Assembly (NCBI GenBank): GCA_963713215.1
Contig: CAVQKY010000005.1
Coordinates: 823,151-887,150 of the forward strand
Source of the DNA: an uncultured Pseudomonadota bacterium
Lineage (GTDB): Bacteria > Pseudomonadota > Gammaproteobacteria > Steroidobacterales > Woeseiaceae
Length of the DNA stretch: 64,000 nucleotides
Direction of reading: 5' to 3'
Below the pieces are notes generated by a model that was not told the DNA's origin, searched no databases, and was given only the letters and a program-made list of their open reading frames with translations. Shown one piece after another: positions 4,442 to 19,269 of this stretch; position 1 is the first letter of the stretch; each line of letters begins with the position of its first letter. Position numbers and translations under genes: made by a program.

Positions 4442-5371
4442 ATGCTCACGCACGACATCGAAACTCCCCGCGCCAGCCTGCAGGCGCGCATCGTGCGGGC
4501 CGTCACCTCCGTGTGGTTCAGCCTGCTCGATGCCGAACGTGCGAATGTCCAGGCGGCGCGTTTCCGGATCAATGCACTGGGAAAGCTGGTGCCGACGGCC
4601 GCAGGCGTTGTGGTGGAGCCGGCCGAAATTGCCGGGCTCGACGCCGAATGGCTGGTGCCGGCCACGGCCCCCGCGGACCGGTTGATCCTGTACCTGCACG
4701 GCGGCGCGTACGTGCTCGGCGGCTGCGATTCGCATCGGCATATGGTGAGTCACATCGCCCGTGCGGCCGGCGTCCGCGCGTTGGTCCCGGAATACAGCCT
4801 GGCGCCGGAAAACCCGTTTCCCGCAGCGGTCGAGGATGTCGTCGAGGTCTACCGTGCCTTGCTCGGCCAGGGTTATGACGCGCGCAATATCGTCGTCGCG
4901 GGCGATTCCGCCGGGGGCGGGCTGGCCGTCGCGAGTTTGCTCGCCAGCCGGGATGCCGGCCTGCCGATGCCGGCCGGCGCATTCCTCCTGTCGCCCTGGC
5001 TCGATCTGTCGGCGAGCGGCGAGACGATGCGCTCGCGCGACGGCCGCGACCCGTGGTTCCGGCCGGGTGACGTGGCCGTCATTGCCGGCCATTACTGCCG
5101 GAAAGACCAGGTGACCGATCCGTTGGTATCACCGGTTTTCGCCGAACTCGACGAATTTCCACCGACGTTCATCCAGGTCGGTGACGACGAGATCCTGCTG
5201 AGCGATGCCACCCGCCTGGCGAAAAATCTCGAATCCCGCGGTTGCCGCGTCGAGCTCGAGGTTTTTCCGGGCATGTGGCACGTATTCCAGGCCTTCCTGC
5301 TGGTCGTGCCCGAGGCGCGCGCAGCGGTCGAACGCCTGGCAGGCAGCATGCGCGAGATTCTCGAGCCCTAG
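4442..5371 (+). CDS. alpha/beta hydrolase fold-3 esterase/lipase (HSL family)
   Basis: ORF 4391..5371. I prefer ATG 4442 because it avoids overlap with the divergent dehalogenase start. Oxyanion motif LHGGAYVLGG and nucleophile GDSAGG. Confidence 0.8.
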   Translation: MLTHDIETPRASLQARIVRAVTSVWFSLLDAERANVQAARFRINALGKLVPTAAGVVVEPAEIAGLDAEWLVPATAPADRLILYLHGGAYVLGGCDSHRHMVSHIARAAGVRALVPEYSLAPENPFPAAVEDVVEVYRALLGQGYDARNIVVAGDSAGGGLAVASLLASRDAGLPMPAGAFLLSPWLDLSASGETMRSRDGRDPWFRPGDVAVIAGHYCRKDQVTDPLVSPVFAELDEFPPTFIQVGDDEILLSDATRLAKNLESRGCRVELEVFPGMWHVFQAFLLVVPEARAAVERLAGSMREILEP

Positions 5372-6732
5372 ATCGTTTTCTCCGCATCCTCGTGCATGCG
5401 GACGAGAAAACGCCGGATTGCCGCCACGGCCTCGTCGCGAGGCATGAGCTGGCGGGCCTCGAATTCCGCTGCCATATCGTGCAGGGAGCGCTTGCCGTCG
5501 ATCAGCGACATGACGAAGGCGTAAATCCGCGTGCTGACCGCCTGTGCCTGGAAGGCCGCCGTAAGCGGCACCGGCTCGTTGCCCGTCACGAGCCAGTCCG
5601 GCAGGGCGCGGTGGCGCGCCGGACGATCGACCGGGCGTGATTTCCTGGCCGCGAACGTGAACACGGTTTCCAGTCGCCCGTGGCGGCTCGCGGGCGAGTT
5701 CATGTAGGGGATAGTGGTCTCGTCGACTTCCGGCGCATCGAAACCCGCGCCGGCGAGGATGTCGATGACCTCGGGCGGCGCGTAGCGCCGGGCGCGGCCT
5801 GCGGCGGCAAAAGCCAGTGAACCGAAATTCAGCCAGCGGCCCCCCGTTCGCAGCAGCGCGTTGATGCGCGCGCTGAACACCGGCAGGTCTTCGCTGACGA
5901 TATCGATGAGCCACGGGGTAACGACGGTGTCGAACTGTGCAGAGGCAAAGGGCGGACGCAGCGCATCGCCGAGCACGAGGTGCAATCCTTCAGACAGGGG
6001 AGCGGGCGCGGCGAGAGTCCGGAGCACCGCATCATCCGCCGCAGCAAGCGGGGCCAGGGGGAACTCGACCATGTCCAGCGTTTCGCCGGCAAACATGCGC
6101 TCGGCGATCAGTACGAGCAAGGGATTGAAATCGAGCGCGAAGAGCTGCGCGACCTCGAATTCGCGTTTGATGTCATACGCCAGCCGGCCTGCACCGGCGC
6201 CGAGAACGAGCGTCGTGCCGAGGGCTGTGTCGGCACAGAGGACCTTACGCAGCGAACCGATAGAGGCGGCGTTCTCCTCCTCGCCCCAGGCCCAGTCCCG
6301 GTGGACGTTGGCGTAGTAGGTGTTGAGGCCCTGGTCGGATGGCATTCGGGTCCGGAGGGCGAGCCACGTTTCGTAGGAAGTGGCCAGGGACCCGACCCCG
6401 ACCGGCGCCAGCAAGCCGGAGAGCGTGCGACGGTGAAGGTCGAGGTGTTCCCGGTAGCGACGCACGCGCGCGCGGGTGGTTTCACGAAGGTCCCGCTGCA
6501 GAAGTTCAGCATCCAGGGCGTCGAGCTCCCGCCCGATACCCTGCAATGCCGAATGCAGGCGGCCGCGCCACTCCGCGAGGCTCGCGTCCGGCTCGGCGAA
6601 CAGCCAGGGGATGCCGTTGAGGTGCGGAAAATCGACCTTGCAGGCACGACAGCGGAATCCCCTGTCCTGCGCATCGAGCGGCGTTTTGTCGCAGCGCGGG
6701 CAGGCGAGCAGGTCGGACGGTATCGGGCTCAT
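5368..6732 (-). CDS. three-part fusion: Trm112/YcaR-like zinc ribbon + class I SAM methyltransferase + C-terminal PqqD-like domain
   Basis: ORF 5368..6822, start taken at MSPIPSDLL (6732). CPRCDKTPL..FRCRACKVDFPHLNGIPWLF is a CxxC..CxxC ribbon. LVLGAGAGRLAYD is the SAM motif I. The C-terminus IYAFVMSLIDGKRSLHDMAAEFEARQLMPRDEAVAAIRRFLVRM resembles PqqD/RRE domains. Confidence 0.6.
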   Translation of the reverse strand: MSPIPSDLLACPRCDKTPLDAQDRGFRCRACKVDFPHLNGIPWLFAEPDASLAEWRGRLHSALQGIGRELDALDAELLQRDLRETTRARVRRYREHLDLHRRTLSGLLAPVGVGSLATSYETWLALRTRMPSDQGLNTYYANVHRDWAWGEEENAASIGSLRKVLCADTALGTTLVLGAGAGRLAYDIKREFEVAQLFALDFNPLLVLIAERMFAGETLDMVEFPLAPLAAADDAVLRTLAAPAPLSEGLHLVLGDALRPPFASAQFDTVVTPWLIDIVSEDLPVFSARINALLRTGGRWLNFGSLAFAAAGRARRYAPPEVIDILAGAGFDAPEVDETTIPYMNSPASRHGRLETVFTFAARKSRPVDRPARHRALPDWLVTGNEPVPLTAAFQAQAVSTRIYAFVMSLIDGKRSLHDMAAEFEARQLMPRDEAVAAIRRFLVRMHEDAEKTI

Positions 6733-6805
6733 CCGGCAATGGTACTGGAATGAGAACGGCCGGTCCGCGAGGACCGGCCGTAACCGGGGGCAGCCAGGAG
6801 GGGGG

Positions 6806-8434
6806 CTACACCGGGTTGGCAATCGTACCGTTGCAGATGGGCGTGAAGGCCGTGAGGCTGTCCTGCAGCGCCGCGTTGCCGAGGCCGTGCGCCGGGAAGA
6901 CCTGGCCGAACAAGCCCTGTTCCCCGTGCAGCGCCATGTAGTTCAGCAACACGGTATTGACGAGCAACGGGACGTTGTTGGCGGCGGGTGTCGCCGCGCG
7001 CTGGACTGCGCCGTCCGAGCTCATGTAACCCAACTGCTGATGCTGCGCGATGTCCGCGGGGGTTGCGCCGATGATCGTCGGCCGTCGGCCCGGGTTATAG
7101 ACGAGGAAGAAGGATGCAGCCGTCGACGAGTTGTCGCTGTCCCATTCGCCCTTGCCCCTGCCGTCGACGGTATCGTCGATCGCGCCGTTCGAGGACAGCG
7201 ACCCGTCTGAGAAGACATAGATCATCACGGGCGTGTTGAGCCTCGCGGCGTATTCGAGCACGGCACCCATGCAGCGACCGGCACGGAAGTCCTTGACCTC
7301 ACCTTCCGCACGGCGCCCGCCATGGTAGTCATAGCCGCCCATCTCGATGCAGCCGGCGCCGGCGTAGCCGTTCATGACCAGCTTCATGATCGAAGCCGTC
7401 TTCTGGAACTCGCGCGCATCGGTGTTGTTGGCATTGAATTCAGCGTCGGTGAATATACCGCTCGGGCCGACGATCACCGGGTCGAGGCCCGGATCGATCG
7501 GGACGCCGCCGAAGCGGTCGGCGATGTCGGCCGCTTTCAGGTAACCGCAACGCACCAGTTCCTTGATGACGGCGTCATTGGTCACCTGCGTGTTGACCCG
7601 ATCCATCTTGGCGTCTGTCAGGCGATAGATCGACTCCATGACCGCCGTCGCGTCTTCTTTCGACAGGATACCGACGAGGTCACCCGTATCCACGAGATTC
7701 GTCACGTCGGACGGCCGGTCGACCTTGGTCGGACGAAGTTCGGGATCGTACAAGGACATCGGCAGCATCGAGTTGCCGCCGGAGTCGGTATTCTCCGAGC
7801 CCGCGAGCGTCAGGATGGAGCCGTTGGCGCCAGCGCCGCCCGCACCGGCACGCGCGATGCCATACATCGGGTTGTGCGGGTTGTTGCCGGTGTCGTTATC
7901 GGAGCGGGCCGGAATGACGGCGCCGTTGATGAATGATTCGTTGCCCGGCGTCAGCATCTGCGCGATGCCCCGGCGGAAGGCCGAATCGAGATGAAAGCCG
8001 AGCCCCAGGTCGAAGTTCGCATAAGGCTGGCCGCTGACCGGGTCGTTGAGGCCGGGCACCATGTCGCCGGGCAGGCCTTGGCGCGAGTAGCCGATCGTGG
8101 CCAGGAAGTCCGACTGTCCCCCTTCCTGTCCGATCAGCACGTTCGAACCCGCAATGTTCGCGCCGCCCGCCAGGTCAAAACAGATGAAGGGAATCTTGCC
8201 GGCGCCGTTCGTCGCGATCTGGCAGGGGTTTATGAGCAGCGCGTCGAGGTCCGACGACAATGCCGCATAGGCTTCGCGCGGATTCGAGAACAGGCTCAAT
8301 ATCCCGGCGCTCGTCGCGTAGGCGGCACCCGACATGAAGCCCTGTGCTACGAATTGGCGGCGTGTGACAGGACGCGGATGATCGCTGTGGAACTGTGGCG
8401 CGTCCCAGTCCCGTTTATTTCGTCTCTTGGCCAT
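6806..8434 (-). CDS. Tat-exported protein of unknown function, distantly DUF1501/DUF1552-like
   Basis: ORF 6806..8503. Start at MAKRRNK (8434) has AAGGAAG 7 nt upstream. Twin-arginine signal VTRRQFVAQGFMSGAAYA. Motifs FICFDLAGGANIAGSN, EMGGYDYHGG and YVFSDGSL resemble the GGxDxxN / GGWDTH / SEFGR blocks of DUF1501 as I remember them. Confidence 0.5.
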   Translation of the reverse strand: MAKRRNKRDWDAPQFHSDHPRPVTRRQFVAQGFMSGAAYATSAGILSLFSNPREAYAALSSDLDALLINPCQIATNGAGKIPFICFDLAGGANIAGSNVLIGQEGGQSDFLATIGYSRQGLPGDMVPGLNDPVSGQPYANFDLGLGFHLDSAFRRGIAQMLTPGNESFINGAVIPARSDNDTGNNPHNPMYGIARAGAGGAGANGSILTLAGSENTDSGGNSMLPMSLYDPELRPTKVDRPSDVTNLVDTGDLVGILSKEDATAVMESIYRLTDAKMDRVNTQVTNDAVIKELVRCGYLKAADIADRFGGVPIDPGLDPVIVGPSGIFTDAEFNANNTDAREFQKTASIMKLVMNGYAGAGCIEMGGYDYHGGRRAEGEVKDFRAGRCMGAVLEYAARLNTPVMIYVFSDGSLSSNGAIDDTVDGRGKGEWDSDNSSTAASFFLVYNPGRRPTIIGATPADIAQHQQLGYMSSDGAVQRAATPAANNVPLLVNTVLLNYMALHGEQGLFGQVFPAHGLGNAALQDSLTAFTPICNGTIANPV

Positions 8435-8460
8435 TGCAGTCTTCCTTGATTGTCCTGTCG

Positions 8461-10956
8461 TTACTGAACGAGCGTTACTGCGCTGCCCAGCGTTGCGGCG
8501 CAAACGCCCTTCGCTATGGAACGCGTATTCGAGCCGCCGGCGATCAGGCGATCGATAAGGTCCGCTGGCCGCCCATCCGGCCCGCCGCCGGCATTGTTGG
8601 CAAGTTCCTGGTACACCGTCGCGTACGTAGGCTGGGTGGCGATCTGTGGCCCCGCCGGCGCATTTCCCACTATCTTCGTGATCAGCGGATTAACCAGGAG
8701 GTCGCGACTGGCACCTGCGAATGCCGTGCCCGGTGCGGCATTGAAATTGAAGCCCGGGAAATAGGTGGCCGCCTGCGGGCCATCCACGAGAGCATTGCAG
8801 TACGAGATCGCGAGCTGCGCGATGGCGACCTGGTGCGAGGACAGGAACGTGTTGACGTCCTCGACCGCAGGCAGTGATTGCCGCAGCTCCTGGTATGTCA
8901 TATCGACGTCGACCGAGTCGGGGTCGACGCCCGTGACCTTGGCAAAGGTCGCGTTGATCTCGTCGAACGTGCGTACGCCGATATGTGGTGCAGGCGGCAG
9001 GTCCGACGGCGAGATGACCAGTGTCGGATCGGGCGCGCGGCTGAAGCTCGCACTGCCGAGCCGGTCGAACGTGAGGAAGAACTCGTCGTCCTCCGGTCCT
9101 TTCTCCAGCGGCAGCACGGCGCCGAGCCTCGACAGCGGCTGCCCGAGTTCCTCGAACAATTGCGCGGACAAGGTGCTGTCCAGCGTGGCATAGGTTTGCC
9201 CGACCGGCGCTTCCTTGCCGTTCATTGCCACACGCAGACCCTCGATGTCGATCCCTTCCGGGGTCGAACCGTCGAGCGTCAGGAAATGCGGCCTGTCGAA
9301 CAGGTAGGCATACGTGTCGTACTGCGAGACCTCGAACAGGATGTACGAGGATTGCGGAGCCGCCTGGATGATCTCGGAGATGTCGAACAACAGGTAGAAC
9401 TTTTCACCTACGCCCACGTCGAAATTCTGCAGAACCTGTTCCTGGGTCAGCGCACGGTCGTGCACTGCGACCAGGCGGAGCGTACCCTGCCACAAGCGAT
9501 CGCCGGACGCCTCGTTACCCAGAACGAACGCGAACGTGTCCTGCCAGTCGATGACCGTACCACCCGGCACCGGGTCGACCTGCGTAACGAGTTCGCCGTT
9601 CACGTAAATGCGCCTGCCATCCGTGGGGCTGTAAGTGGCAACGACGTGCTGCAGTGTCGCTTGCAATACTTGGTCCGCGCTCGGCGTCGATAGCGCCGGG
9701 TCGCCGTTCAGGCTCGTTTCAGTCGTCCGCAACAGGAAATTGTAGTCGTACAGGGTCTGTTGCAGCGTGAGGTTGCGGGCTTCCGTGCCCGCTGAATAGC
9801 TCACGATGCGAGCCTCTTCCTGAGCCACATTACCGGGAATTACCCAGGCTTCGACGGAGAATTGTCCGCCCGATTCCTGGATAAAATCGAAAATCTTGCG
9901 GCTCGCGGTCGTCGAGCCCTGGGCCTTGCCGTTATTGATGGTGATGCCCCAGCCGCCGTACCACTCGACGTCCCCCGAGAGGTTGAGATCGAGCGCCGGT
10001 GCGACGCCGCTGGTGTCGTAAGCCACCAGGCCACTGCCGGTCTTGAATTCCCACAGCGCGATCTGGTCGCTCTCGTAGCGATTGCCACCGGAAGCTATCG
10101 TACCGTCGACGAGCCGGAGCGCCTTGCTGGTCACGAGGCTCGGATCGATCGTGGTCAGCGAGATTGCGCCTGCATAGGCCTGGATCGCGGCCAGCATGGT
10201 CGCCGCGTCGTTCGAGCAGCTGTTCGTCCAGCAGTTGTGGAATTCGACGCCAAGGCGCAGGACGAAGCGTGAGTTCGCCGGATCGTCGAGATTCATCTTG
10301 GACTTTGCCGCGTCGTAGGCAACGTTGATGTCGGGATCCGCAAAGTACGGCTGGATGGCATTACCGGATTCCGAACTGTGACACCCGGCGCAATGCTCGG
10401 TCAGCAGACCATGGATACCCGCGAAAGACGGCGGGCCGAACGCGTCGGCCGGATAATTCCGGCTGGCTCCCGGGTCCACAGAACTGGGCGGCAATAGCAC
10501 GATCTCGCGGCCGCCGCCCGCAGCGTCACCAAGCCAGTTCTCGATCCACGTCGTCATGACGGAGGAGCAGACGCTCGGCTCGGAGTTCCAGCAGTTGTGG
10601 CCCTGGCCGACTTTTTCCACCATGCGCGACAAGGAAGGCTGCGACATGTCGGTGACCGTCACTGCCTCGTCGTGTGCCATGTTTATGTCGTCGAAACGGG
10701 CGAACATAGGCGACTGGCCGGTGGTTTCGTTGTGACACCCGCCGCAGGTTGCCTGATTTTGTACCGGTAGCCAGAACTCGGTCAGGAATTTCTGGACGCC
10801 GTCATCACGCGGCGACGCCGCGCCCGAGTATGTGATCGTGTTGTTGCCGGTACCGCCCTGCGGTATCGGCATGTCCTCTGTCTGGGCACCACCGCCGCAG
10901 GCCGAGACGAGCAGGCCAAGAGCGGAAACCAGCAGCACGCTTCTTGCGTTAATCAT
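8461..10956 (-). CDS. lipoprotein with two CXXCH haem c motifs, a LamG-like jelly-roll and an unknown C-terminal region
   Basis: ORF 8461..10956, AGGAGAAGG upstream. Lipobox LLVSAC|GG. CGGCH at nt 10746..10732 and CAGCH at 10392..10378. Central region (WGITINNGKAQG..FSVEAWVIP..RIYVNGELV..LGNEASGDRLWQGTLRLVAVHDRAL) looks like Laminin_G_3. Confidence 0.6.
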   Translation of the reverse strand: MINARSVLLVSALGLLVSACGGGAQTEDMPIPQGGTGNNTITYSGAASPRDDGVQKFLTEFWLPVQNQATCGGCHNETTGQSPMFARFDDINMAHDEAVTVTDMSQPSLSRMVEKVGQGHNCWNSEPSVCSSVMTTWIENWLGDAAGGGREIVLLPPSSVDPGASRNYPADAFGPPSFAGIHGLLTEHCAGCHSSESGNAIQPYFADPDINVAYDAAKSKMNLDDPANSRFVLRLGVEFHNCWTNSCSNDAATMLAAIQAYAGAISLTTIDPSLVTSKALRLVDGTIASGGNRYESDQIALWEFKTGSGLVAYDTSGVAPALDLNLSGDVEWYGGWGITINNGKAQGSTTASRKIFDFIQESGGQFSVEAWVIPGNVAQEEARIVSYSAGTEARNLTLQQTLYDYNFLLRTTETSLNGDPALSTPSADQVLQATLQHVVATYSPTDGRRIYVNGELVTQVDPVPGGTVIDWQDTFAFVLGNEASGDRLWQGTLRLVAVHDRALTQEQVLQNFDVGVGEKFYLLFDISEIIQAAPQSSYILFEVSQYDTYAYLFDRPHFLTLDGSTPEGIDIEGLRVAMNGKEAPVGQTYATLDSTLSAQLFEELGQPLSRLGAVLPLEKGPEDDEFFLTFDRLGSASFSRAPDPTLVISPSDLPPAPHIGVRTFDEINATFAKVTGVDPDSVDVDMTYQELRQSLPAVEDVNTFLSSHQVAIAQLAISYCNALVDGPQAATYFPGFNFNAAPGTAFAGASRDLLVNPLITKIVGNAPAGPQIATQPTYATVYQELANNAGGGPDGRPADLIDRLIAGGSNTRSIAKGVCAATLGSAVTLVQ

Positions 10957-10967
10957 GATCCCTTCTC

Positions 10968-12152
10968 CTACTGGCCCATGCAGTGGACGGCCGAATCGGC
11001 GAACACCTGCTTCATGCGGTAGCCCGAACTACGGAACGTGTCCGTAATCTGATCGACTGCGTCACGGTCTGTCTGGTCTTCCGGGCTGCGCAGGCACACG
11101 GCACGGAACACTTTCCTGACTTGGCACGCGGCGAACGCGTAGCTGTTGGCAAGTTCCTCGCCCATCGTTTTCGCACCATTGCCTTCGCCCGGCAGCGCCG
11201 GATCGAAGCCCAGGTAGGCGTTCTGCCCGCTACGCCAGTAGTTTTCCCAGGAGTCGTCCGTCGTCCGAAAGCCCTGCGGAAAATTCAGGTCGTTGTTGAA
11301 ATATTTCGGCTGCACGTTGCCGGGCGTGTACTCGAGCGCTCCGGTATCGACGTTGTAGTTGTAATACGCGAAGGCGCCCGCCAACGGGTCCATTCCTGTG
11401 TGGCAACCGACGCAGTTATTCAGGAACAGCCGGCTGTCGCCGCCGGGGCTGCGGCTCACATCCTGGCGTATACGGTCGGGCGGCAGCCTCGGATCATGCA
11501 TCTGCTCCATGTCGTTGCACATGTGATTCAAGAGCGTGAAGCGGAACATTGCCCGGTTGGTGCCGGCGACGAAAAACGCCTCGGATGCCGCGCGTGAGGT
11601 CATGACGCCCGCCGTCGCGGTCGACGGCAGGCCATTTATCGAGGATTGGGACGTGCTTACCAGCGCGTCCCGGAGGTTCACATTTTCCGCCTCGAGTTGT
11701 TCGTAGTGGAGATTGTTGCTTGCCGAAGGCGCTGCGCTCACCGCACCCGGCGCCCCGACGTAGGAAAGGTCCGCGGACAGCAATGTATTGAACGGCACGT
11801 CGTCCCGCACCATGCCGATAACGGTGGCGACGTAGTCGTTGAGAGGGACGAATACCGAGCGATCACGGTTCGTCCACGGTGCGGCGAAATTTTTCAGCGT
11901 GACGTTATAGAAGTTCTCGTCGGTCATCGCGATATAAGCCGCACCCTGTGCATCGCTGGCCAGGAGTGAGGACTCCATCTGCGCGAGCACCGCATCGGAC
12001 GGCGGAACGCCCGCGAGCCGATCATGAATACGGCGAGCCTGTTCGCGAGGTCCGGCGACGGCCGGGGTGGCGAGAGCGGCGATCAGTATCGTCGCCAGCG
12101 CGGCACGCGCGAGTTTGATCACACCGGATTGCGTCCTTGTCCATGTCTTCAT
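10968..12152 (-). CDS. secreted single-CXXCH protein, DUF1588/DUF1592 (planctomycete PSD)-like
   Basis: ORF 10968..12164, ATG 12152 (MKTW) preferred. Signal ARAALATILIAALATPAVAG. CVGCH at nt 11414..11400 in the context NNCVGCHTGMDPLAGAFAYYN, like the C..CH..mDP.G block of DUF1588-type proteins. The stop is 11 nt before the next gene. Confidence 0.5.
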   Translation of the reverse strand: MKTWTRTQSGVIKLARAALATILIAALATPAVAGPREQARRIHDRLAGVPPSDAVLAQMESSLLASDAQGAAYIAMTDENFYNVTLKNFAAPWTNRDRSVFVPLNDYVATVIGMVRDDVPFNTLLSADLSYVGAPGAVSAAPSASNNLHYEQLEAENVNLRDALVSTSQSSINGLPSTATAGVMTSRAASEAFFVAGTNRAMFRFTLLNHMCNDMEQMHDPRLPPDRIRQDVSRSPGGDSRLFLNNCVGCHTGMDPLAGAFAYYNYNVDTGALEYTPGNVQPKYFNNDLNFPQGFRTTDDSWENYWRSGQNAYLGFDPALPGEGNGAKTMGEELANSYAFAACQVRKVFRAVCLRSPEDQTDRDAVDQITDTFRSSGYRMKQVFADSAVHCMGQ

Positions 12153-13005
12153 AGCGACTCTCATTACGAAACGTCACGTCTGCCGCGCCACAATCAATCC
12201 CGATAGAACGCGCACAGACAGAAGTATTAACAGCGTGCCTAAACCCGGTATTTTTTGCCGTGATTACACTCACAGTACCGTCACGCCTTCCCGACCTTGC
12301 CGCCGTGTCTGTCTTTTGTGTTTCTTTGACGGCCTGCTCCCGTAAAGCAATAGCTGTGCCAGTCCACGCCCGGCCGCCGCCGGGACCGATTTTCTTCCCG
12401 ACAATCATCGGCTTGCCGCGTCCGCCAAGTCGGAGTCCGAAATCGAGATATGTCAAGCCTTTGTCTCAACAAACACACATCACAATGACGCAAAAAAACT
12501 AAACTATTGATTTGTATACGCTTGACGGATGTCGCGGAAGTCCGACAGCCGCGTCGATACCCGACAATGTATGTCAGACTGCACGTAAGCTACTGGTCGC
12601 ATGCGGATTTCCGCGGGACAAAGTCGCGGCCATCCGCGCGAAATCGGGAAGTGACAGCATGGGAGGAACCCTTTCGCCGGATGCCGCGTGTCAGCGAACG
12701 GGAAGACATCGCAATGGCAATGTCGGATATTTTCGACGATACACGGCGGGCCGCGCGTCTCTTATACTGCACCGGAACCCGAAACCGGCCGGATGCAAAA
12801 TTGCTTTGCGATTTCTCTGGTTACGATGGGGCGACAGGCTTTGTGATCGCGTTAACGGTAGTGTCGGTCGCCAGTGTTCACTATTACGAATTGTTCAAAC
12901 GGCGCTGTGAGCCGCGTACCCGTGTGCAGGAAAGGCCGTGCCCTTCATGACAACGTGGTATGAAAAATGCAGTTGTTTAGCCGTTTGAATTCGAGGGAAG
13001 GTCCC

Positions 13006-15756
13006 ATGAACAGCGAGTCGATTCACACGCACACAGGCATTATGTGCAGGGCGGTGCGAGCCACTCTCCTGTTCTCGTGTGCGTCCGCGATCGTTGCTTG
13101 TGACGGCGCGAACCAGGGCGTGCAGATCGGCGACGGGCAGTCACCGGACCCGGTCGTGGTCGATTTCCCGATCGCTTACATCCGTGTGCCTGTGCCGGTC
13201 GACGACAACGGTGCGTTCGAGCAAATGGACCTGCGTGAGCAGATCACCTTCGATGTCGGCGGGGAGCTGTATGTCAAGCCGCGGGCCTCGACGACGGCGA
13301 CCCCCGTCAACGTGACTGGCGAGATCACAGAAGGCAACGGCGCCGTCCGCGATGTCGAAATCGCCTACGATGGCAGTGCGGTCCTGTTCGCGATGCGCAC
13401 CCCGTTCGATCCTAACCTCGACGACGAAGACCAGGTGACCTGGAACCTGTGGGAATACACCTTCGATGACCGGGCGTTGCGCCGGATCATTGCGTCCGAC
13501 CTGTCAGCCGAGATCGGCCATGACATCATGCCGAAATACCTGCCCGACGGCCGAATCGTTTTCGCCTCGACGCGCCAGACCCGTTCGCAGGCGATTCTCC
13601 TCGACGAGGGCAAGCCGGCCTTCGTCGCCGTCGACGAGAACCGGAACGAGTACGCGTTCAACCTGCATATCATCAACCGGGACGGCACCGGGATCGAACA
13701 AATCACCTTTAATCAGAGTCATGACCTGGACCCGGCCGTGCTGGCCGACGGTACGATCGTGTTCACGCGATGGGACCACGCGGGGCCGAACAACGACCAG
13801 ATGAACCTGTACCGCGTCAACCCGGACGGCTCGGGCCTGGAACTCCTGTACGGGAACGAAAGCCACGACACCGGGACCGGCGGCGAAACGATCCAGTTCA
13901 CGCAGCCGAGGCAGGCGGAAGACGGCCGGATCTTTTCGCTCATCCGGCCGTTCACGAACACGGAGGGCGGTGGCGAGGTCATTTCCATCGACACGCCGCG
14001 ATACGTCGAAAACACACAGCCGCTCGCGGAGAACATCGGTGTGCTGGACGGTCCGGCGCAACAGGACGCCACGGTCAACGAGGTCATTACCGTGCCCGGC
14101 GTGCCCTCGCCGGGAGGACGCTATGCGTCGGTCTACCCGATCCAGGACGGTACGGGCCGGATGCTGGTCAGCTGGGCGCAATGTCGCCTCATCGAAGCGA
14201 ACGTCGATCTCGACCCGGGCACGCCGGAAATCGAACCGGTGATCGTCCCGTGTACCGAAGATCGGCTGGACGACGTCTTCGTCATCGATCCGGACAACAT
14301 CGTGCCGATCCCGGACGGCAGTTTCCTGGTCGCGCCGCCCTTGTACGGCATCTGGATCTACGACCCGCGGGACAAGACGCAGCAGCCGGTCGTACCAGGC
14401 GAAGAAGGCTGGATGTTCACGGAAGTGGTATCCGCGGACCCTCGCCCGACACCCCCGGTCGTGGTCGATGGCATCAACGATTTCGAATTTGATAGCTCGC
14501 TTGGCCAGGACGGCGAAGCGGTCCTGCATATCCGCAGCGTCTATGACTTCAACGGTACGGCGGTGGTCGACATCGAGGCGATGGCCGACCCGACGCTGAC
14601 CCCCGCGGAAAGCCGCCCGGCCCGGTTTCTCCGGGTCGTGAAAGCGGTCTCCCAGCCTGACGACGATTTACTCGATATCGACGACACCGCATTTGGCGTC
14701 ACGACGGCAAACGGCATGAGGGAAATCGTGGGATACACGATGATCGAGCCCGACGGCTCGGTCATGACCAGGATTCCGGCCAACACGGCCCTCATGATCA
14801 GCGTGCTTGACGCCAACGGCAAGCGCGTCACGGCGCGTCACGACAACTGGATTTCGGCCCGGCCCGGACAGGTGATCGAGTGCAGCGGCTGCCATGAACC
14901 GGCCACCGGCTTCTCGCACGGACGCCGCGACGCGTTCGAGTCCGCCTGGGCCGGTGCACCGGTAGCGGGGGTTCCGTTCCCGAATACGAATCCCGCGTTG
15001 TTCGTCGGCGACATCGGCGATACGATGGCTGAAACCCGCGCGAGAATCAGCTGCGCGAACGACGGCTGTGCCTCGATCGAGCCGTCGATGAATATCGAGT
15101 TCACCGATGTCTGGACAGATCCGGCCGTCGCCGTGCCAAGTCCGGACTTCAGTTACCTGTACACGGACCTTGTGACACCCGCCCCGACTATCGTGGCGTG
15201 CCTACAGGACTGGCACGCCGCCTGCCGCACGATCATCAACTACGAAACGCATATTCATCCGCTCTGGAGCCTGCCGCGACTCGTCTTCGACGAGCTGGGC
15301 AATCCGGTACTCGATGTGAATGGGAACCAGGTCAGCGCCAATTGCCTGAACTGTCACACACCGATCGACCCGGCGGACGGCATGACCGTGCGGGTCCCGG
15401 CAGGCCAGCTCGAACTGCAGGACGGGCCGTCCCCGGACGAGCAGCTGCATTTTCACGCCTATCGCGAATTGCTAGTTACTGATAATCTTCAGGAAGTGGT
15501 CAACGGAGCCCTTGTGGATGCGCAGCAGCAGGTTGGCGTCGATGAAGACGGCAACCCGATACTCGACGTGATCCGCATTGCGCCATCCGCCAGTACCGCG
15601 GGGGCAAGCGCGTCCGGCGATTTCTTCGGCCGGTTCGAAGACCCTGACGATTTGCACTACAACATCTTGTCGCCGGCGGAGAGACGCTTAATTGCGGAAT
15701 GGTTGGATGTCGGAGCCCAGTACTACAACAATCCCTTCGACGCCCCAGCCAATTGA
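13006..15756 (+). CDS. lipoprotein with TolB/PD40-like beta-propeller repeats and two C-terminal CXXCH motifs (HzsA-like layout)
   Basis: ORF 12967..15756. ATG 13006 follows GAGGGAAGG. Lipobox SAIVAC|DG. Repeated YDGSAVLFAMR, LPDGRIVFASTR, NRDGTGIEQITF, LADGTIVFTRWDH, NPDGSGLELLYG, AEDGRIFSLIRP. CSGCH at 14881..14895 and CLNCH at 15343..15357. Confidence 0.6.
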   Translation: MNSESIHTHTGIMCRAVRATLLFSCASAIVACDGANQGVQIGDGQSPDPVVVDFPIAYIRVPVPVDDNGAFEQMDLREQITFDVGGELYVKPRASTTATPVNVTGEITEGNGAVRDVEIAYDGSAVLFAMRTPFDPNLDDEDQVTWNLWEYTFDDRALRRIIASDLSAEIGHDIMPKYLPDGRIVFASTRQTRSQAILLDEGKPAFVAVDENRNEYAFNLHIINRDGTGIEQITFNQSHDLDPAVLADGTIVFTRWDHAGPNNDQMNLYRVNPDGSGLELLYGNESHDTGTGGETIQFTQPRQAEDGRIFSLIRPFTNTEGGGEVISIDTPRYVENTQPLAENIGVLDGPAQQDATVNEVITVPGVPSPGGRYASVYPIQDGTGRMLVSWAQCRLIEANVDLDPGTPEIEPVIVPCTEDRLDDVFVIDPDNIVPIPDGSFLVAPPLYGIWIYDPRDKTQQPVVPGEEGWMFTEVVSADPRPTPPVVVDGINDFEFDSSLGQDGEAVLHIRSVYDFNGTAVVDIEAMADPTLTPAESRPARFLRVVKAVSQPDDDLLDIDDTAFGVTTANGMREIVGYTMIEPDGSVMTRIPANTALMISVLDANGKRVTARHDNWISARPGQVIECSGCHEPATGFSHGRRDAFESAWAGAPVAGVPFPNTNPALFVGDIGDTMAETRARISCANDGCASIEPSMNIEFTDVWTDPAVAVPSPDFSYLYTDLVTPAPTIVACLQDWHAACRTIINYETHIHPLWSLPRLVFDELGNPVLDVNGNQVSANCLNCHTPIDPADGMTVRVPAGQLELQDGPSPDEQLHFHAYRELLVTDNLQEVVNGALVDAQQQVGVDEDGNPILDVIRIAPSASTAGASASGDFFGRFEDPDDLHYNILSPAERRLIAEWLDVGAQYYNNPFDAPAN

Positions 15757-16564
15757 GTTTTCGCTGAGCGCGCGGCACATAGCGCGATACGTCGTTGAAA
15801 AGACGAACGAATGGCGCGCGCATGCACGGTCGTTGATTTGTTGCGTCTGCATCATTCTTGCCGCGGCCGGGACGGGTCATGCGGCCGAGGACCCGTTGCG
15901 GCAGGTCGCGGTTGCCGACCCGTATCTCGAGTTGCATACGGGGCCGGGGCGCGGCTACCCGGTTTTTCACGTCGTCGAACGCGGCGAAAGCGTGTCGGTC
16001 GTGTTACAGCGGACGGACTGGTACCTCGTGCGCACGGACCGGGCGATCGAAGGCTGGGTGAATCGCGACCAGATGGAACTGACCCTGACCGACGATGGCG
16101 GGAATTTCGTGGTCGATCGGGCTGCGCTCGAGGATTTCACGAACGCGAAGTGGGAGGTCGGCGTACTGGCGGGTGATTTCGGCGGCGCCAACGTCGTCTC
16201 CCTGTATGGGAGCTATTCGCTGAATCCGCATGTTTCGGTCGAAGCGTGGGGTTCACAGATCCTGGGCAATTTTTCGAACGGCTGGATCGGTAATGTTAAT
16301 CTCGTTCACGAGGCGTTCCCGGACTGGCGCATTTCGCCGTTCTTCACACTGGGGGCGGGCTTCATCCACACGGAACCGAAATCGACCATCGTGCAGGGGG
16401 AGGACCGGACGGACCAGCTCGGGCACGCAGGCGCAGGATTCCGGATCTATGCCACCCGGCGCTTTCTGTTGCGCGCCGAATTCAAGAGCTATGTCGTGTT
16501 CACGAGTCGCGACGACAATGAGGAAGTAGAGGAATGGAAAGTCGGGTTCGCGTACTTTTTCTGA
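15692..16564 (+). CDS. outer-membrane small beta-barrel protein with N-terminal SH3b-like domain
   Basis: ORF 15692..16564. The start is uncertain: ATG 15692 overlaps the upstream gene by 65 nt, and in-frame TTG 15833 is an alternative. Signal-like LICCVCIILAAAGTGHA. PYLELHTGPGRGYPVFHVVERGESVSVVLQRTDWYLVRTDRAIEGWV is SH3b-like. The C-terminus alternates like barrel strands and ends VGFAYFF. Confidence 0.55.
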   Translation: MRNGWMSEPSTTTIPSTPQPIEFSLSARHIARYVVEKTNEWRAHARSLICCVCIILAAAGTGHAAEDPLRQVAVADPYLELHTGPGRGYPVFHVVERGESVSVVLQRTDWYLVRTDRAIEGWVNRDQMELTLTDDGGNFVVDRAALEDFTNAKWEVGVLAGDFGGANVVSLYGSYSLNPHVSVEAWGSQILGNFSNGWIGNVNLVHEAFPDWRISPFFTLGAGFIHTEPKSTIVQGEDRTDQLGHAGAGFRIYATRRFLLRAEFKSYVVFTSRDDNEEVEEWKVGFAYFF

Positions 16565-17214
16565 TCGCCTTCGCGGTCCTCGTGAGCGGATGCGCGGCGA
16601 CCAAGAACCTGTTCGGGATAGGCGACGATGAGACGGCGCCCCCGACAGCGGAGCCGCCGGGCCAGGTGATCAACCCGGAAGTCGAACGCCGGGAGATCGA
16701 GGAGCCCGCGATCGACCGCGAAGACTTCGAACTCGGCGCGTTTGTCGGCGTCATGAGCGTCGAGGATTTCGAGAGCGGCGTCGTGTACGGCGCTCGCCTT
16801 TCCTACCACCTGACCGAGGGTTTTTTCGTCGAAGGCACGATCGGCCAGACGGACGCCGGCAAGACGAGTTTCGAACTCCTGTCGGGCGGCGCGCAACTTA
16901 TTTCCGACAGCGAACGACGTCTTACCTACTACAATCTGAACGTCGGCTACAACATCCTGCCCGGCGAAGTGTTCATCGGGGAAGGGCGGGCGTACAACAC
17001 GAATCTGTACGTCATCGCGGGTCTCGGCTCGACGGAATTCGCGGGTGACGACAGGTTCACGGTAAATTTCGGGGCCGGTTACCGCTTCCTGCTCACGGAC
17101 TCGGTCGCGCTGCACCTCGATTTTCGCGATCACCTGTTCGATATCGACCTGTTCGGCGAGGAGAAGACCGCGCACAATCTCGAGGCGCACCTCGGGGTTA
17201 CGGTGTTCTTCTAG
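16534..17214 (+). CDS. outer-membrane beta-barrel lipoprotein (same barrel type as the preceding gene)
   Basis: ORF 16534..17214. Lipobox VLVSGC|AA, acidic linker, then an alternating-strand barrel ending HLGVTVFF. It overlaps the upstream gene by 31 nt. Confidence 0.6.
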   Translation: MESRVRVLFLIAFAVLVSGCAATKNLFGIGDDETAPPTAEPPGQVINPEVERREIEEPAIDREDFELGAFVGVMSVEDFESGVVYGARLSYHLTEGFFVEGTIGQTDAGKTSFELLSGGAQLISDSERRLTYYNLNVGYNILPGEVFIGEGRAYNTNLYVIAGLGSTEFAGDDRFTVNFGAGYRFLLTDSVALHLDFRDHLFDIDLFGEEKTAHNLEAHLGVTVFF

Positions 17215-17281
17215 GGCCGGAGGGGTTATCTTCTGACGGACTTCACGGTACCCGGCTGCACGCAGGCGATAAAGTGAGGAA

Positions 17282-17527
17282 ATGACAGTGACTATTCGAG
17301 CAATTGGCCGACATTGGCTCAGCGCAGGCCTGGTCGTGCTTCTGGCAGGCTGCGGCGGGGGCATCGAGCCCTGGGTCAAGCCCTATGAGCGCGACCGGCT
17401 GGCCGACCCCATCATGGCGCTCGACGGCGACCCGGTGTCCTCGTCCTACATCCAGCACGTCTATGAAGCACGCGAAGGCGCCCGCGGCGGCGAAGGTGCC
17501 GCAGGCGGCGGCTGTGGCTGCAACTGA
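17282..17527 (+). CDS. DUF4266 family small lipoprotein
   Basis: ORF 17282..17527. Lipobox VLLAGC|GG. The family-typical C-terminal GGGCGCN is present (..AAGGGCGCN). Confidence 0.7.
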   Translation: MTVTIRAIGRHWLSAGLVVLLAGCGGGIEPWVKPYERDRLADPIMALDGDPVSSSYIQHVYEAREGARGGEGAAGGGCGCN

Positions 17528-17534
17528 CGGGCGC

Positions 17535-18659
17535 ATGAACCTGCTTCGCCGGATTCTTTGCCTCGGCAGCCTGTCGGCGCTTGCCGGCAGTGCCGTTGCG
17601 GGCGTCTTGCCCGACGACCGGGGTGACGTGATGTATCACCGGTACGTCGGCGGCGGCGTCGAGATCGACGGCCCGTCCGTGCTCGTGCGCAAGAAAGTGG
17701 GTTCCAGTTTTTCCTTCGTCGGCAACTACTACGTCGACTACGTCAGTTCGGCGTCCATCGACGTCGTCACCCAGGCGAGCCCGTACACGGAGCAGCGCAA
17801 CCAGTGGTCGCTTGGCGTGGATTATCTGCGCGGCAATACCACGATGAGCGCCAACTACACGAGTTCGGAGGAATCCGACTTCGACGCGAAGACCTATGGA
17901 TTCGCAGTCAGCCAGGACATGTTCGGCGACCTGACGACCCTGACACTGAGCTATGCCTACGGCGACGACCTCGTCCGGCGGACCGACGATCCGGCCTTCG
18001 CGGAGCCCAATACACGCCAGGTCTATGGTATCGGCCTGACACAGATCCTCACCCGGGATCTGATCGCGACACTCAATTTCGAGACCGCGACCGACGAGGG
18101 CTTCCTGAACAATCCCTACCGCTCGGTGCGCTACGTCGACCCGACCGCGGACCTGGGCTACAGCTGGGAGCCGGAGCTCTATCCGCGCACCCGCACCAGC
18201 AACGCCCTGGGCCTGCGCGCACGCTATTTCCTGCCGTATCGGGCGGCGGTCGAACTGGAAGTACGGGGTTACACGGACACCTGGGACATCGACGGCCTGA
18301 TGGGGTCGCTCATGTACGTACACCCCTGGGGGCCGTTCACGTTCAGCGCCAAGTATCGATACCATGGACAGAACAGCGCGCATTTTTATAGTGACAATTT
18401 TCCGCGTTCCCAAGCGACGAATTTTCGCGGCCGCGACAAGGAGCTGAGCGAGCTCTACAGCAATACTTACAGTTTCAGGGCGAGTTACCAGTTCGTCGAC
18501 GAGAACCGTGGCTGGAGCTTTGTGAAGAGGGGCTCGGTTACCGCATCGTATGACCGCCTGTCCATCAAGTATCCCGACTTTACGGACCTGATCGCGGGCG
18601 GCGGCGCTTACATCCTAAAGGCAAACGTGTTCCAGCTTTACGTCTCGTTATGGTACTGA
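17535..18659 (+). CDS. DUF3570 family outer-membrane barrel protein
   Basis: In-frame ATG 17535 of ORF 17304..18659, 7 nt after DUF4266. Signal MNLLRRILCLGSLSALAGSAVA. YHRYVGGGVEIDGPSV..NYYVDYVSSASIDV fits my memory of DUF3570. Ends aromatic (YVSLWY). Confidence 0.65.
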   Translation: MNLLRRILCLGSLSALAGSAVAGVLPDDRGDVMYHRYVGGGVEIDGPSVLVRKKVGSSFSFVGNYYVDYVSSASIDVVTQASPYTEQRNQWSLGVDYLRGNTTMSANYTSSEESDFDAKTYGFAVSQDMFGDLTTLTLSYAYGDDLVRRTDDPAFAEPNTRQVYGIGLTQILTRDLIATLNFETATDEGFLNNPYRSVRYVDPTADLGYSWEPELYPRTRTSNALGLRARYFLPYRAAVELEVRGYTDTWDIDGLMGSLMYVHPWGPFTFSAKYRYHGQNSAHFYSDNFPRSQATNFRGRDKELSELYSNTYSFRASYQFVDENRGWSFVKRGSVTASYDRLSIKYPDFTDLIAGGGAYILKANVFQLYVSLWY

Positions 18660-18708
18660 TGCCACCTTAGGATGAAGTACGCCAAAGTTTGGGGAGTGTA
18701 GCGCTAGG

Positions 18709-19269
18709 GTGGCAACGCTCGCAGCCATGTTCCTCGCCGCCCTTTTCGCCGCCGGTATTTTCTATTTCAACCGGCTCGTGCGCGGCCGGAACCGGGTGGA
18801 TACGGCCTGGAGCGACATCGACGTCCAGCTGCAACGCCGGCACGACCTCGTGCCGCGCCTCGTCAGCGCCGTGCGTCAATACGCGGCCTACGAACGCGCG
18901 ACGCTGGAAGCCGTCACCGCCCTCCGCGAGCAGGCCATGCGGGCGGCCGACGTCGAGGCACGCGGCGAACTCGAAGCTGAACTGAGCGGGGGCATGGACC
19001 GGCTCATCGCGCTCGCAGAGAACTACCCGGACCTCAAGGCCAGTGCGAACTTCCTCGGCCTGCAGCAGGAACTCGTGCAGACCGAGAATTACCTGCAGTT
19101 CGCGCGCCGTTACTACAACGCGTCGGTGCGCGACTACAACACGGCGATCGAATCGGTGCCGGGCAATATCGTGGCAAGCCTGTTTCGATTCAGCGCACGG
19201 CCGTTTTTCCAGAAGGCCGCGGACGAGGTGGCGAACGTGCCGCCGGTCAGGCTGGGGTCCACGGAATGA
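18709..19269 (+). CDS. lemA: LemA family membrane protein
   Basis: ORF 18709..19269 (GTG start). N-terminal TM, then NRLVRGRNRVDTAWSDIDVQLQRRHDLVPRLV..NYPDLKA..YYNASVRDYNTAIESVPGNIVA, typical of LemA. Confidence 0.85.
   Translation: MATLAAMFLAALFAAGIFYFNRLVRGRNRVDTAWSDIDVQLQRRHDLVPRLVSAVRQYAAYERATLEAVTALREQAMRAADVEARGELEAELSGGMDRLIALAENYPDLKASANFLGLQQELVQTENYLQFARRYYNASVRDYNTAIESVPGNIVASLFRFSARPFFQKAADEVANVPPVRLGSTE

Follow-up and report, generated by a model that had tools for sequence, protein, structure and literature searches.

A conserved gene cluster of Woeseiaceae and other Gammaproteobacteria joins a DUF4266/DUF3570 pair to an HzsA-related lipoprotein in a candidate redox system of the periplasm and outer membrane

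Introduction

ApbE was shown by experiment to flavinylate a DUF3570 protein of Chlorobium at [S/T]GA[S/T] motifs, and genes for ApbE, DUF3570, a thioredoxin-like protein and a DUF4266 protein with a CXC motif, with or without DsbD, form clusters regarded as an extracytosolic electron-transfer module, the function of which is called uncertain by the authors (Meheust et al., 2021, eLife, PMC8238504). Homologues of the alpha subunit of hydrazine synthase (HzsA) paired with HzsBC-like proteins are known from Planctomycetota and a small number of other phyla (PMC12758564; PMC10732223). In the PVC superphylum, PSCyt/PSD proteins are paired with uncharacterised genes, and no function has been assigned to them (PMC5615132). 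Here, we describe a gene cluster in which a DUF4266/DUF3570 pair is joined to genes for an HzsA-related lipoprotein, two further cytochromes, two small barrels and a Tat-exported protein. It lies in a 64,000-nt stretch of a Woeseiaceae genome (assembly GCA_963713215.1, contig CAVQKY010000005.1, positions 823,151-887,150), which was analysed as a whole and is called the window below.

Judged from sequence and gene order, eight of the nine genes flagged in a preliminary description of this DNA form one conserved cluster (window 6806-18659). Their products very probably function together, and we read them overall as a modular redox system, thiol-flavin-haem in kind, located in the periplasm and outer membrane, a reading to which we give a probability of roughly 0.55. 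It is supported by gene content, motif conservation, linkage and fold homology in the sequences and structural models considered below. The finding defines a widespread system rather than revealing its function.

A conserved eight-gene cluster

Open reading frames of the window were listed and translated, and their products were profiled against Pfam and NCBIfam. All nine frames flagged in the preliminary description were recovered in their places, and statistics of G+C content at third codon positions (GC3) back their reading. The five CXXCH motifs, four lipoboxes, one twin-arginine (Tat) signal and three barrels with an aromatic C-terminal residue that it had counted are all present (Table 1). 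These motifs are more than chance, because they are kept across orthologues: all five CXXCH in at least 96% of 69-130 sequences (30-90% identical), and, in alignments of 61-130 orthologues over the same identity range, about 95-100% conservation holds for the CXXCH motifs, the Tat RR-x-F, the C-terminal CGC of DUF4266, the aromatic barrel ends and the lipobox Cys of HZS929, LamG831 and DUF4266. The export signals place all products in the periplasm or outer membrane. The layout was also described correctly, with gaps of 11 and 26 nt in the left unit, MT484 following 73 nt further on, overlapping junctions in the right unit and a 67-nt gap before the DUF4266 gene; the two divergent units and the non-coding spacer between them, which measures 802 nt, stand as well.

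The nearest homologues of HZS929 are found in metagenome-assembled genomes of Woeseiaceae, and a scan of genome contigs with the HZS929 alignment gave 80 loci, all Woeseiaceae-like and 59-92% identical; by tblastn, nearly every locus shows the order of the nine genes seen in the window. One explanation that has to be considered is that the genes are unrelated neighbours, their adjacency arising from shared ancestry alone. Within the Woeseiaceae the data would agree with it, as the whole region is syntenic, and the flanking genes for alpha/beta-hydrolases, LemA, DUF2207 and rhomboid proteins are as syntenic as the cluster. Synteny in this family was rejected as proof of functional linkage, since an order shared by unrelated flanking genes is uninformative on function.

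The deciding evidence comes from more distant lineages, which were reached via a 50%-cluster search and then a homologue search from a 32%-identical member. With the HzsA-related gene as bait, the same layout was found on contigs of Hahella sp. KA22, Exilibacterium tricleocarpae, two Steroidobacteraceae-like genomes and a JGI contig; a reciprocal search, with the Tat gene as bait, led to this cluster again, in Aliikangiella, Alteromonas sp. M12 and Corallincola. Started from P0235, the representative that diverges most, a scan of metagenomes added five loci that are 28-30% identical to the bait and carry the same cluster, and reached no new lineage. The core is cyt400 <- LamG <- Tat, divergent from HzsA-related -> SH3-barrel -> barrel -> thioredoxin -> DUF4266 -> DUF3570, and the left unit of distant loci codes for a ~400-aa cytochrome, a ~820-aa LamG protein and a ~530-aa protein without a Pfam match. 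The first five of these genes (cytochrome, LamG, Tat, HzsA-related, SH3-barrel) keep the same divergent order in 13 of 13 loci outside the Woeseiaceae. The other genes are present as far as the available sequence reaches. All 13 loci have the small barrel, which in L090 is truncated by the end of the contig; 12 have thioredoxin, annotated as AhpC-TSA/thioredoxin, and DUF4266; and 12 have DUF3570, which is truncated by the end of the locus in L086 and L087. Orthologues from the Hahella, Steroidobacteraceae and metagenome loci that were scored are 38-64% identical to the window proteins, and the hosts, marine Gammaproteobacteria, span at least five orders (Woeseiales, Cellvibrionales, Alteromonadales, Oceanospirillales, Steroidobacteraceae). 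The flanks of the 13 loci are unrelated to one another and to those of the window. The gene-neighbourhood comparison suggested in the preliminary description therefore favours linkage, since the core is retained in every distant locus with either bait while its surroundings differ. Shared ancestry alone is effectively excluded, and the earlier proposal of one periplasm/outer-membrane system instead of unrelated neighbours is strongly supported.

The distant loci are also larger. In each distant locus that reaches so far (12/13), a thioredoxin gene separates the small barrel from DUF4266, ApbE adjoins the cluster in nine of 13, and a block consisting of a ~190-aa protein and two TPR proteins (~630 and ~960 aa) adjoins it in eight of 13. 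The window copy is a reduced, eight-gene version of this 9-15-gene system, because thioredoxin, ApbE (PF02424), the ~190-aa protein and the TPR proteins have no homologues in the 64-kb window, nor in the 80 Woeseiaceae loci. A further reduction is seen in one Woeseiaceae locus (L057; JADFSP010000016.1, 8180-14100), a natural deletion variant free of Ns, in which MT484 is directly followed by the HzsA-related gene, both barrels and LemA, and from which cyt398, LamG831, Tat542, DUF4266 and DUF3570 are missing. The region is thus built of separable modules.

Table 1. Features of the cluster and its surroundings, in window coordinates (aa, amino-acid position; SAM, S-adenosylmethionine).
Feature	Position	Strand	Description
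MT484	5368-6732	-	Fusion of Trm112-like zinc ribbon (two CXXC), SAM methyltransferase and PqqD-like part; outside the system
Tat542	6806-8434	-	Exported; twin-arginine TRRQF; begins MAKRRNK...TRRQFV
LamG831	8461-10956	-	Lipobox VSAC20; CXXCH at aa 71 and 189; Laminin_G_3 76.7 bits; two tandem haem modules (CXXCH...HNCW...C), LamG/ConA-like lectin at aa 363-508, uncharacterised C-terminal domain
cyt398	10968-12164	-	Sec signal; CXXCH at aa 251-255; C-terminal PSD2/DUF1585-like domain; heads left operon
Divergent spacer	12165-12966	.	802 nt; sequence not conserved, one box apart
Conserved box	12835-12891	+	TTGTGATCGCGTTAACGGTA, ~17 nt, then (C)GTCCACTAT; ~75-115 nt upstream of HZS929
HZS929	12967-15756	+	Lipobox IVAC45; alternative start ATG 13006; N-terminal beta-propeller, middle domain with CXXCH at aa 639, C-terminal domain with CXXCH at aa 793
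SH3-barrel	15707-16564	+	Signal peptide; bacterial SH3 (SH3_3); small barrel (OMP_b-brl) ending FF
OMP226	16534-17214	+	Lipobox VSGC20; TIGR04565 (OMP_myx_plus) 162 bits; small barrel ending FF
DUF4266 lipoprotein	17282-17527	+	PF14086 82.8 bits; ends GGGCGCN (CXC motif)
DUF3570 barrel	17535-18659	+	PF12094 87.5 bits (cut-off 25); signal peptide ends AVA/G; predicted outer-membrane

The HzsA-related lipoprotein

On the evidence of its sequence and model, HZS929 is a full-length homologue of hydrazine synthase alpha, because three kinds of comparison agree. Phmmer aligned four colinear segments of HzsA (5c2v_A) to HZS929. The family profile, run against the whole PDB, gave 5c2v_A as its sole match (E 6.5e-21), in six colinear segments that include both CXXCH motifs. 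The AlphaFold2 (AF2) model (pLDDT 90.8) matched the same chain over its full length in Foldseek (E 8.5e-29), with a TM-score of 0.48 when normalised to the query and 0.58 when normalised to the target, a structural identity of about 15%, and a TolB or peptidase propeller as the runner-up fold at about 1e-9. In Pfam, the protein matches PD40 and HZS_alpha (PF18582, 58 bits), and its Hahella orthologue is named 'HzsA-related protein' at NCBI. The preliminary description had stated that none of the proteins belongs to a recognised pathway, which was too strong for this protein and for the DUF4266/DUF3570 pair discussed below.

The homology does not make HZS929 a hydrazine synthase, and the sequence data indicate that it is not one, since it scores 63.3 bits on the NCBIfam hydrazine_alpha equivalog (cut-off 800), no HzsB/HzsC-type annotation is found among neighbouring genes in the window and the 13 distant loci, and the residues after the first CXXCH differ. 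C45, C639, H643, H651, C793, C796 and H797 are invariant in the orthologues, and C642 is kept in at least 90% of them. At position +4 from the first CXXCH there is Thr647 in the window protein and Ser in the family consensus, and the invariant His651 stands at +8; the HMMER alignment to HzsA ends just past the motif, so that residue equivalence beyond it is tentative. Haem alpha-I of HzsA reportedly has a proximal Tyr and a zinc site. This Tyr does not seem to be conserved in the HZS929 family, in which His651 is invariant instead, and the chemistry of HZS929 is therefore probably different from hydrazine synthesis.

Related to this is the possibility that the protein is a nitrogen-oxide or hydroxylamine enzyme, performing HZS-alpha-like N-N or N-O chemistry in aerobic heterotrophs (e.g., in hydroxylamine or nitric oxide (NO) detoxification), with other haem proteins standing in for HzsBC. 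The full-length homology in sequence and structure, with both haem motifs aligned, speaks for it. The hosts of the cluster are aerobic heterotrophs, which counts against it, as do the 15% structural identity and the equivalog score far below the cut-off. Genes of the hao, hdh, nir and nor types were found in none of the loci. There is also no adjacent beta/gamma homologue, and co-location of alpha with beta-gamma is the criterion used for HzsA/HzsBC-like pairs (PMC12758564). We consider this explanation very unlikely.

The architecture itself is common. In a profile search, 7109 of 1.84 billion cluster representatives proved related to HZS929 at E <=1e-3, 671 of them at E <=1e-30. Most of the best 150 share 30-65% identity with HZS929 and are lipoproteins with two CXXCH motifs and a length of about 800-1100 aa; the remainder of these 150 are shorter fragments or have a single motif. 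The full HzsA architecture is therefore widespread outside anammox bacteria, with wholly other partners and with cultured carriers (Hahella, Alteromonas, Corallincola, Aliikangiella), and the system is experimentally tractable.

A separate observation concerns the lipobox of HZS929 (aa 44-46, window 13096-13104). Directly behind the lipidated Cys, at position +2, the window protein and 23 of 79 orthologues have Asp; most of the others have Ser or Gly. Asp at this position acts in E. coli as the Lol-avoidance signal, which retains lipoproteins in the inner membrane. Because of this variation at +2, the membrane that anchors the HzsA-related protein may differ among lineages.

The DUF4266/DUF3570 module

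The DUF4266/DUF3570 pair of the window is the published ApbE-flavinylation module (PMC8238504). Residues C24, C78 and C80 of DUF4266 are conserved among orthologues. The DUF3570 barrel ends in Tyr in 70 of 74 sequences and in Phe in three more, and its D-x-V-S-S-A-S motif (aa 68-74) is kept in at least 96% of 75 orthologues. From its sequence, this motif is a putative ApbE flavinylation site, and a second motif of the flavinylation type was not found in the window protein. Flavinylation in the window organism stays putative, because ApbE, thioredoxin and TPR genes are absent from the window and from the Woeseiaceae loci examined.

An outer-membrane electron conduit, porin-cytochrome-like in kind, would be another use of such a module, serving iron or manganese redox reactions, their assimilation or extracellular electron transfer. 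Flavinylation genes co-localise with iron transporters, including 25 DUF3570 clusters with VIT1 (PMC8238504), and outer-membrane barrels and lipoprotein cytochromes are encoded together in the present cluster. However, no iron transporter is linked in the 13 distant and 80 Woeseiaceae loci, surface exposure of the lipoproteins is presumed, and five haems divided over three proteins (one, two and two CXXCH) do not make a decahaem or other multihaem wire. A conduit of this kind is quite unlikely.

The cytochrome, LamG and Tat-exported proteins of the left unit

The haem motif of cyt398, orthologues of which are present in all 13 distant loci, reads CXXCH-x-x-M-D-P, and C251, C254, H255 and M258 are kept in at least 96% of 77 orthologues. 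The PSD2 model scores 24.4 bits on the window protein, just under the Pfam cut-off of 25.8; it matches the same region in five of five orthologues, and at 26.9 bits one of them (L085) exceeds the cut-off. Of the PSCyt1-3 models, only PSCyt3 gave a match, of 12 bits (E 0.21), around the CXXCH.

LamG831 has conserved residues in two series, C71/C74/H75/H120/C122/C130 and C189/C192/H193/H240/C242/C247, in addition to the lipobox C20. The repeats suggest two bis-His electron-transfer haems, each with a disulfide, and H120 and H240 are plausible distal ligands. In the PDB, lectin modules of the sialidase CBM40 type are weak matches of the family profile (E 0.008), and the C-terminal domain has no known relatives. 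PDB searches with the LamG831 sequence and with the cyt398 and LamG831 profiles gave nothing significant beyond these weak lectin-module matches; HzsC, CCP and MauG chains are not among the matches of the two profiles. It was also considered that cyt398 and LamG831 might be paralogues, which was rejected, as hhalign aligned the CXXCH motif alone.

Tat542 is the best-conserved gene product of the cluster, with 52-61% identity to orthologues from other orders and more than 70% among many genera. R25, R26 and F28 are invariant, and the Tat motif is found in 61 of 64 sequences. The protein belongs to no Pfam or NCBIfam family, and no Pfam match was obtained for 35 family members; neither sequence nor profile searches found a relative in the PDB. 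Its best 50 Foldseek matches in the PDB, obtained with an AF2 model of pLDDT 74.8, all belong to the alkaline-phosphatase superfamily and are weak (E >=6e-3, TM 0.12-0.23), so that Tat542 is possibly a very divergent member of this fold. Assignment to DUF1501 or DUF1552 was rejected, as neither family appeared at E <=10 in the 35 members. The family counts at least 8000 members at E <=1e-5. It is often labelled 'general secretion pathway protein GspF' at NCBI (e.g., P0387, P0408, P0410, P0415), which looks like a propagated mis-annotation. A very abundant and highly conserved family is thus without a Pfam model and widely misnamed. It is also worth noticing that residues 11-26 of Tat542, just before the twin arginines (D/P-x-x-x-x-D-H-x-R-P-x-T-R-R), are near-invariant across orders. 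Such an n-region is unusual for Tat signals and might mark a site for a dedicated chaperone or proofreading.

The composition of the left unit raises the possibility of substrate capture and degradation, akin to the PSCyt/PSD + Tat pairs of Planctomycetes and Verrucomicrobia. LamG831 would bind a glycan or other polymer at the surface, Tat542, if similar to alkaline phosphatases or sulfatases, would remove an ester, the haems would provide an oxidative step or act as sensors, and the DUF3570 module would just supply or remove electrons. The PSD2/DUF1585 domain of the cyt398 family, Laminin_G_3 with the CBM40 likeness in LamG831 and the alkaline-phosphatase-superfamily hydrolases that make up all top structural neighbours of Tat542 agree with this, as does the pairing of PSCyt genes with uncharacterised families, sometimes carrying carbohydrate-binding modules (CBMs) (PMC5615132). 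On the other side, the models for PSCyt1-3, DUF1501 and DUF1552 match no member, the Foldseek similarity is weak, and neither glycoside hydrolases, sulfatases, TonB receptors nor transporters consistently accompany the cluster. The PVC pairs themselves lack an assigned function. We regard capture as unlikely. The preliminary description had suggested electron transfer or substrate capture, and electron transfer fits the parts better.

The small outer-membrane barrels

In each of the 13 distant loci, the SH3-barrel gene comes after the HzsA-related gene. Its start is uncertain, being at 15692, at ATG 15707 (with a 50-nt overlap with HZS929) or at TTG 15833; its product ends in Phe in 81 of 81 sequences. 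The OMP226 gene overlaps it by 31 nt, with the same 31 nt in Hahella and Steroidobacteraceae, and its product ends in Phe in 78 of 78 sequences. The OMP226 lipobox was found in Woeseiaceae and Steroidobacteraceae, and lipidation is not a conserved trait, because a plain Sec signal takes its place in Hahella, Exilibacterium and the JGI contig (L081, L082, L085).

Barrels of this type can also be considered parts of a machine for envelope biogenesis or maintenance, in which the cytochrome motifs would be secondary. Such a machine would consist of a TolB-like propeller, an SH3 domain resembling peptidoglycan-binding ones, OmpA-like barrels, TPR proteins of the YbgF/BamD kind and, for the maturation of cytochromes, a ResA-like thioredoxin. 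TolB is indeed among the next structural neighbours of the propeller after HzsA, the TPR proteins of the relatives score on YbgF and BamD models, and their thioredoxin scores best on ResA, TlpA and DsbE. However, only the propeller resembles TolB, Woeseiaceae do without the TPR and thioredoxin genes, and the haem, CXC and flavinylation motifs are all strictly conserved. An envelope machine is highly improbable.

A modular redox system

The preferred reading, a thiol-flavin-haem redox system, divides the cluster into three modules. Module A, on the minus strand, would comprise a periplasmic mono-haem protein with a PSD2 domain, a dihaem LamG lipoprotein and a Tat-exported enzyme. Module B, on the plus strand, would comprise an outer-membrane-anchored dihaem HzsA-related lipoprotein and the two small barrels, one with SH3, which probably anchor, dock or scaffold HZS929. 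Module C would consist of the DUF4266 lipoprotein with its CXC motif and the DUF3570 barrel, accompanied elsewhere by a TlpA/ResA-like thioredoxin, ApbE and TPR proteins. It is proposed that reducing equivalents would pass from an inner-membrane thiol relay via thioredoxin to the CXC of DUF4266 and then to flavin mononucleotide (FMN) on DUF3570, and onward through the bis-His haems of LamG831 and the haem of cyt398, or flow in the reverse direction. The site of the first haem of the HzsA-like protein, and possibly Tat542 too, would transform a periplasmic or surface substrate. We hold this relay tentatively, as a working scheme that is more likely to need revision than to stand, and we infer the physical complex, the electron path and its direction from the parts.

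A more specific proposal, which goes well beyond the preferred reading, is that the HzsA-related lipoprotein is the catalytic subunit of a so far unrecognised outer-membrane-associated oxidoreductase that is widespread in aerobic marine Gammaproteobacteria, fed by a thiol-flavin-haem relay that includes flavinylated DUF3570 and carrying out HZS-related N-O/N-N chemistry on hydroxylamine or NO. It is a long shot. If it were true, the enzyme complex, and possibly also its reaction in the nitrogen cycle, would be new, and the DUF3570 flavinylation system would get its missing function.

Several points weigh against the redox system as we read it. The window DUF3570 has a single S-S-A-S with Ser for Gly, and the published pattern is two [S/T]GA[S/T]. 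Thioredoxin, ApbE and TPR genes are missing within 10 kb in the 80 Woeseiaceae loci and from the 64-kb window. DUF3570 clusters without HzsA-related genes occur in other phyla, e.g., in Chlorobium luteolum (PMC8238504), and every locus sampled here is gammaproteobacterial. The deletion variant L057 keeps module B without A and C, and the modules are not obligatorily interdependent. The fold assignment of Tat542 is weak, and the proximal Tyr of HzsA appears unconserved in the HZS929 family. Finally, the case is built on sequences and models.

In this cluster, the DUF3570 module gains fixed, conserved partners, namely an HzsA-like haem protein, a Tat-exported enzyme and two further cytochromes. 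Candidate electron donors or acceptors therefore become testable as a defined set. Woeseiaceae are abundant in marine sediments, and an eight-gene envelope redox system kept across this family likely matters physiologically.

Flanking genes and the intergenic region

The ninth gene flagged in the preliminary description, the methyltransferase fusion MT484, had been counted as a member of the system, which could not be upheld; it is a Woeseiaceae-only neighbour, found beside the cluster in 55 loci of this family and absent from all 13 distant ones. Its methyltransferase domain is clear, the matches to the Trm112-like zinc ribbon and PqqD are weak, and no NCBIfam family was assigned. A role as maturation enzyme of the system was rejected, as the gene is absent from every distant locus. 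It does not travel with the left unit either, because L057 keeps MT484 without the three left-unit genes. On the other side, genes for LemA and a DUF2207 membrane protein (18676-20969, plus strand) follow DUF3570 after 16 nt, in Woeseiaceae only, and the DUF2207 protein carries a C-terminal poly-Gly/Ser tail. Like MT484, both occur in none of the 13 distant loci.

The spacer that matches the divergent one in distant loci spans 215-940 nt. No Rfam family was found in window 5000-19500, and scans for sigma-70 promoters and terminators gave results at or below chance. Nhmmer located the conserved box of the spacer (Table 1) in 63 of the 76 intergenic regions searched, each time ahead of the HzsA-related gene and each time in Woeseiaceae; in this set it was not found in other orders. 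It is retained in L057 despite the missing left unit, and is a candidate promoter or operator of the right operon. The AAC...CGTC spacing within the box looks like the pattern of extracytoplasmic function (ECF) sigma factors, and TGTGA like a CRP half-site.

Comparison with known systems

The claim of an undescribed system, made in the preliminary description, holds in one part. No published description of this gene combination was found in the literature on HzsA-like proteins, TIGR04565 and DUF1585/DUF1592/DUF1552, but the DUF3570/DUF4266 module within it had been published.

The cluster differs from porin-cytochrome/Mtr conduits, which have multihaem cytochromes, typically of about ten or more haems, and a large outer-membrane porin, as opposed to the one, two and two CXXCH motifs here; no MtrB-like family is among the Pfam and NCBIfam matches of the cluster proteins. 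With the PVC PSCyt-PSD/Tat pairs (DUF1549/DUF1553 + DUF1501; DUF1592-type + DUF1552) it shares exported CXXCH proteins, here with a borderline PSD2 match, sometimes with lectin or CBM parts, beside a Tat-exported protein. Unlike in those pairs, PSD2 is the only one of their domains detectable, haem and lectin parts are on two genes, and the cluster is larger.

HZS929 resembles HzsA of Kuenenia stuttgartiensis (PDB 5C2V) in its propeller and in the CXXCH of the middle and C-terminal domains, in a colinear match. It differs in being about 15% identical, a lipoprotein, without an HzsB/HzsC partner and with an invariant His at CXXCH+8, and its hosts are Gammaproteobacteria outside the anammox lineage, with loci lacking hao, hdh, nir and nor. 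The HzsA/HzsBC-like pairs outside anammox bacteria (PMC12758564; PMC10732223) are similar in that they include HzsA homologues of unassigned function in non-anammox bacteria; they are, however, defined by fused beta-gamma homologues, often with FG-GAP/CRTAC1 proteins, none of which is found in this cluster.

Among the closest described systems are also the DUF3570 clusters (PMC8238504). The window shares with them the adjacent DUF3570 and DUF4266 genes, the C-terminal CXC and a flavinylation-type motif, and the distant relatives share in addition the thioredoxin directly upstream of DUF4266 and the adjacent ApbE. The window differs in having no thioredoxin, ApbE or DsbD and a single S-S-A-S motif. 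A further difference is that the pair is joined here to six more conserved genes (HzsA-related, two barrels, two cytochromes, Tat). These six go unmentioned in the main text of that paper, and no PF18582 or HZS_alpha entry was found in its supplementary files, which could be covered in part, so that absence is unproven. Compared with all of these, the novelty lies in what is added to an extracytosolic redox cluster of the flavinylation-associated kind, namely the HzsA-related haem lipoprotein, the two other cytochromes and a new family of Tat-exported proteins.

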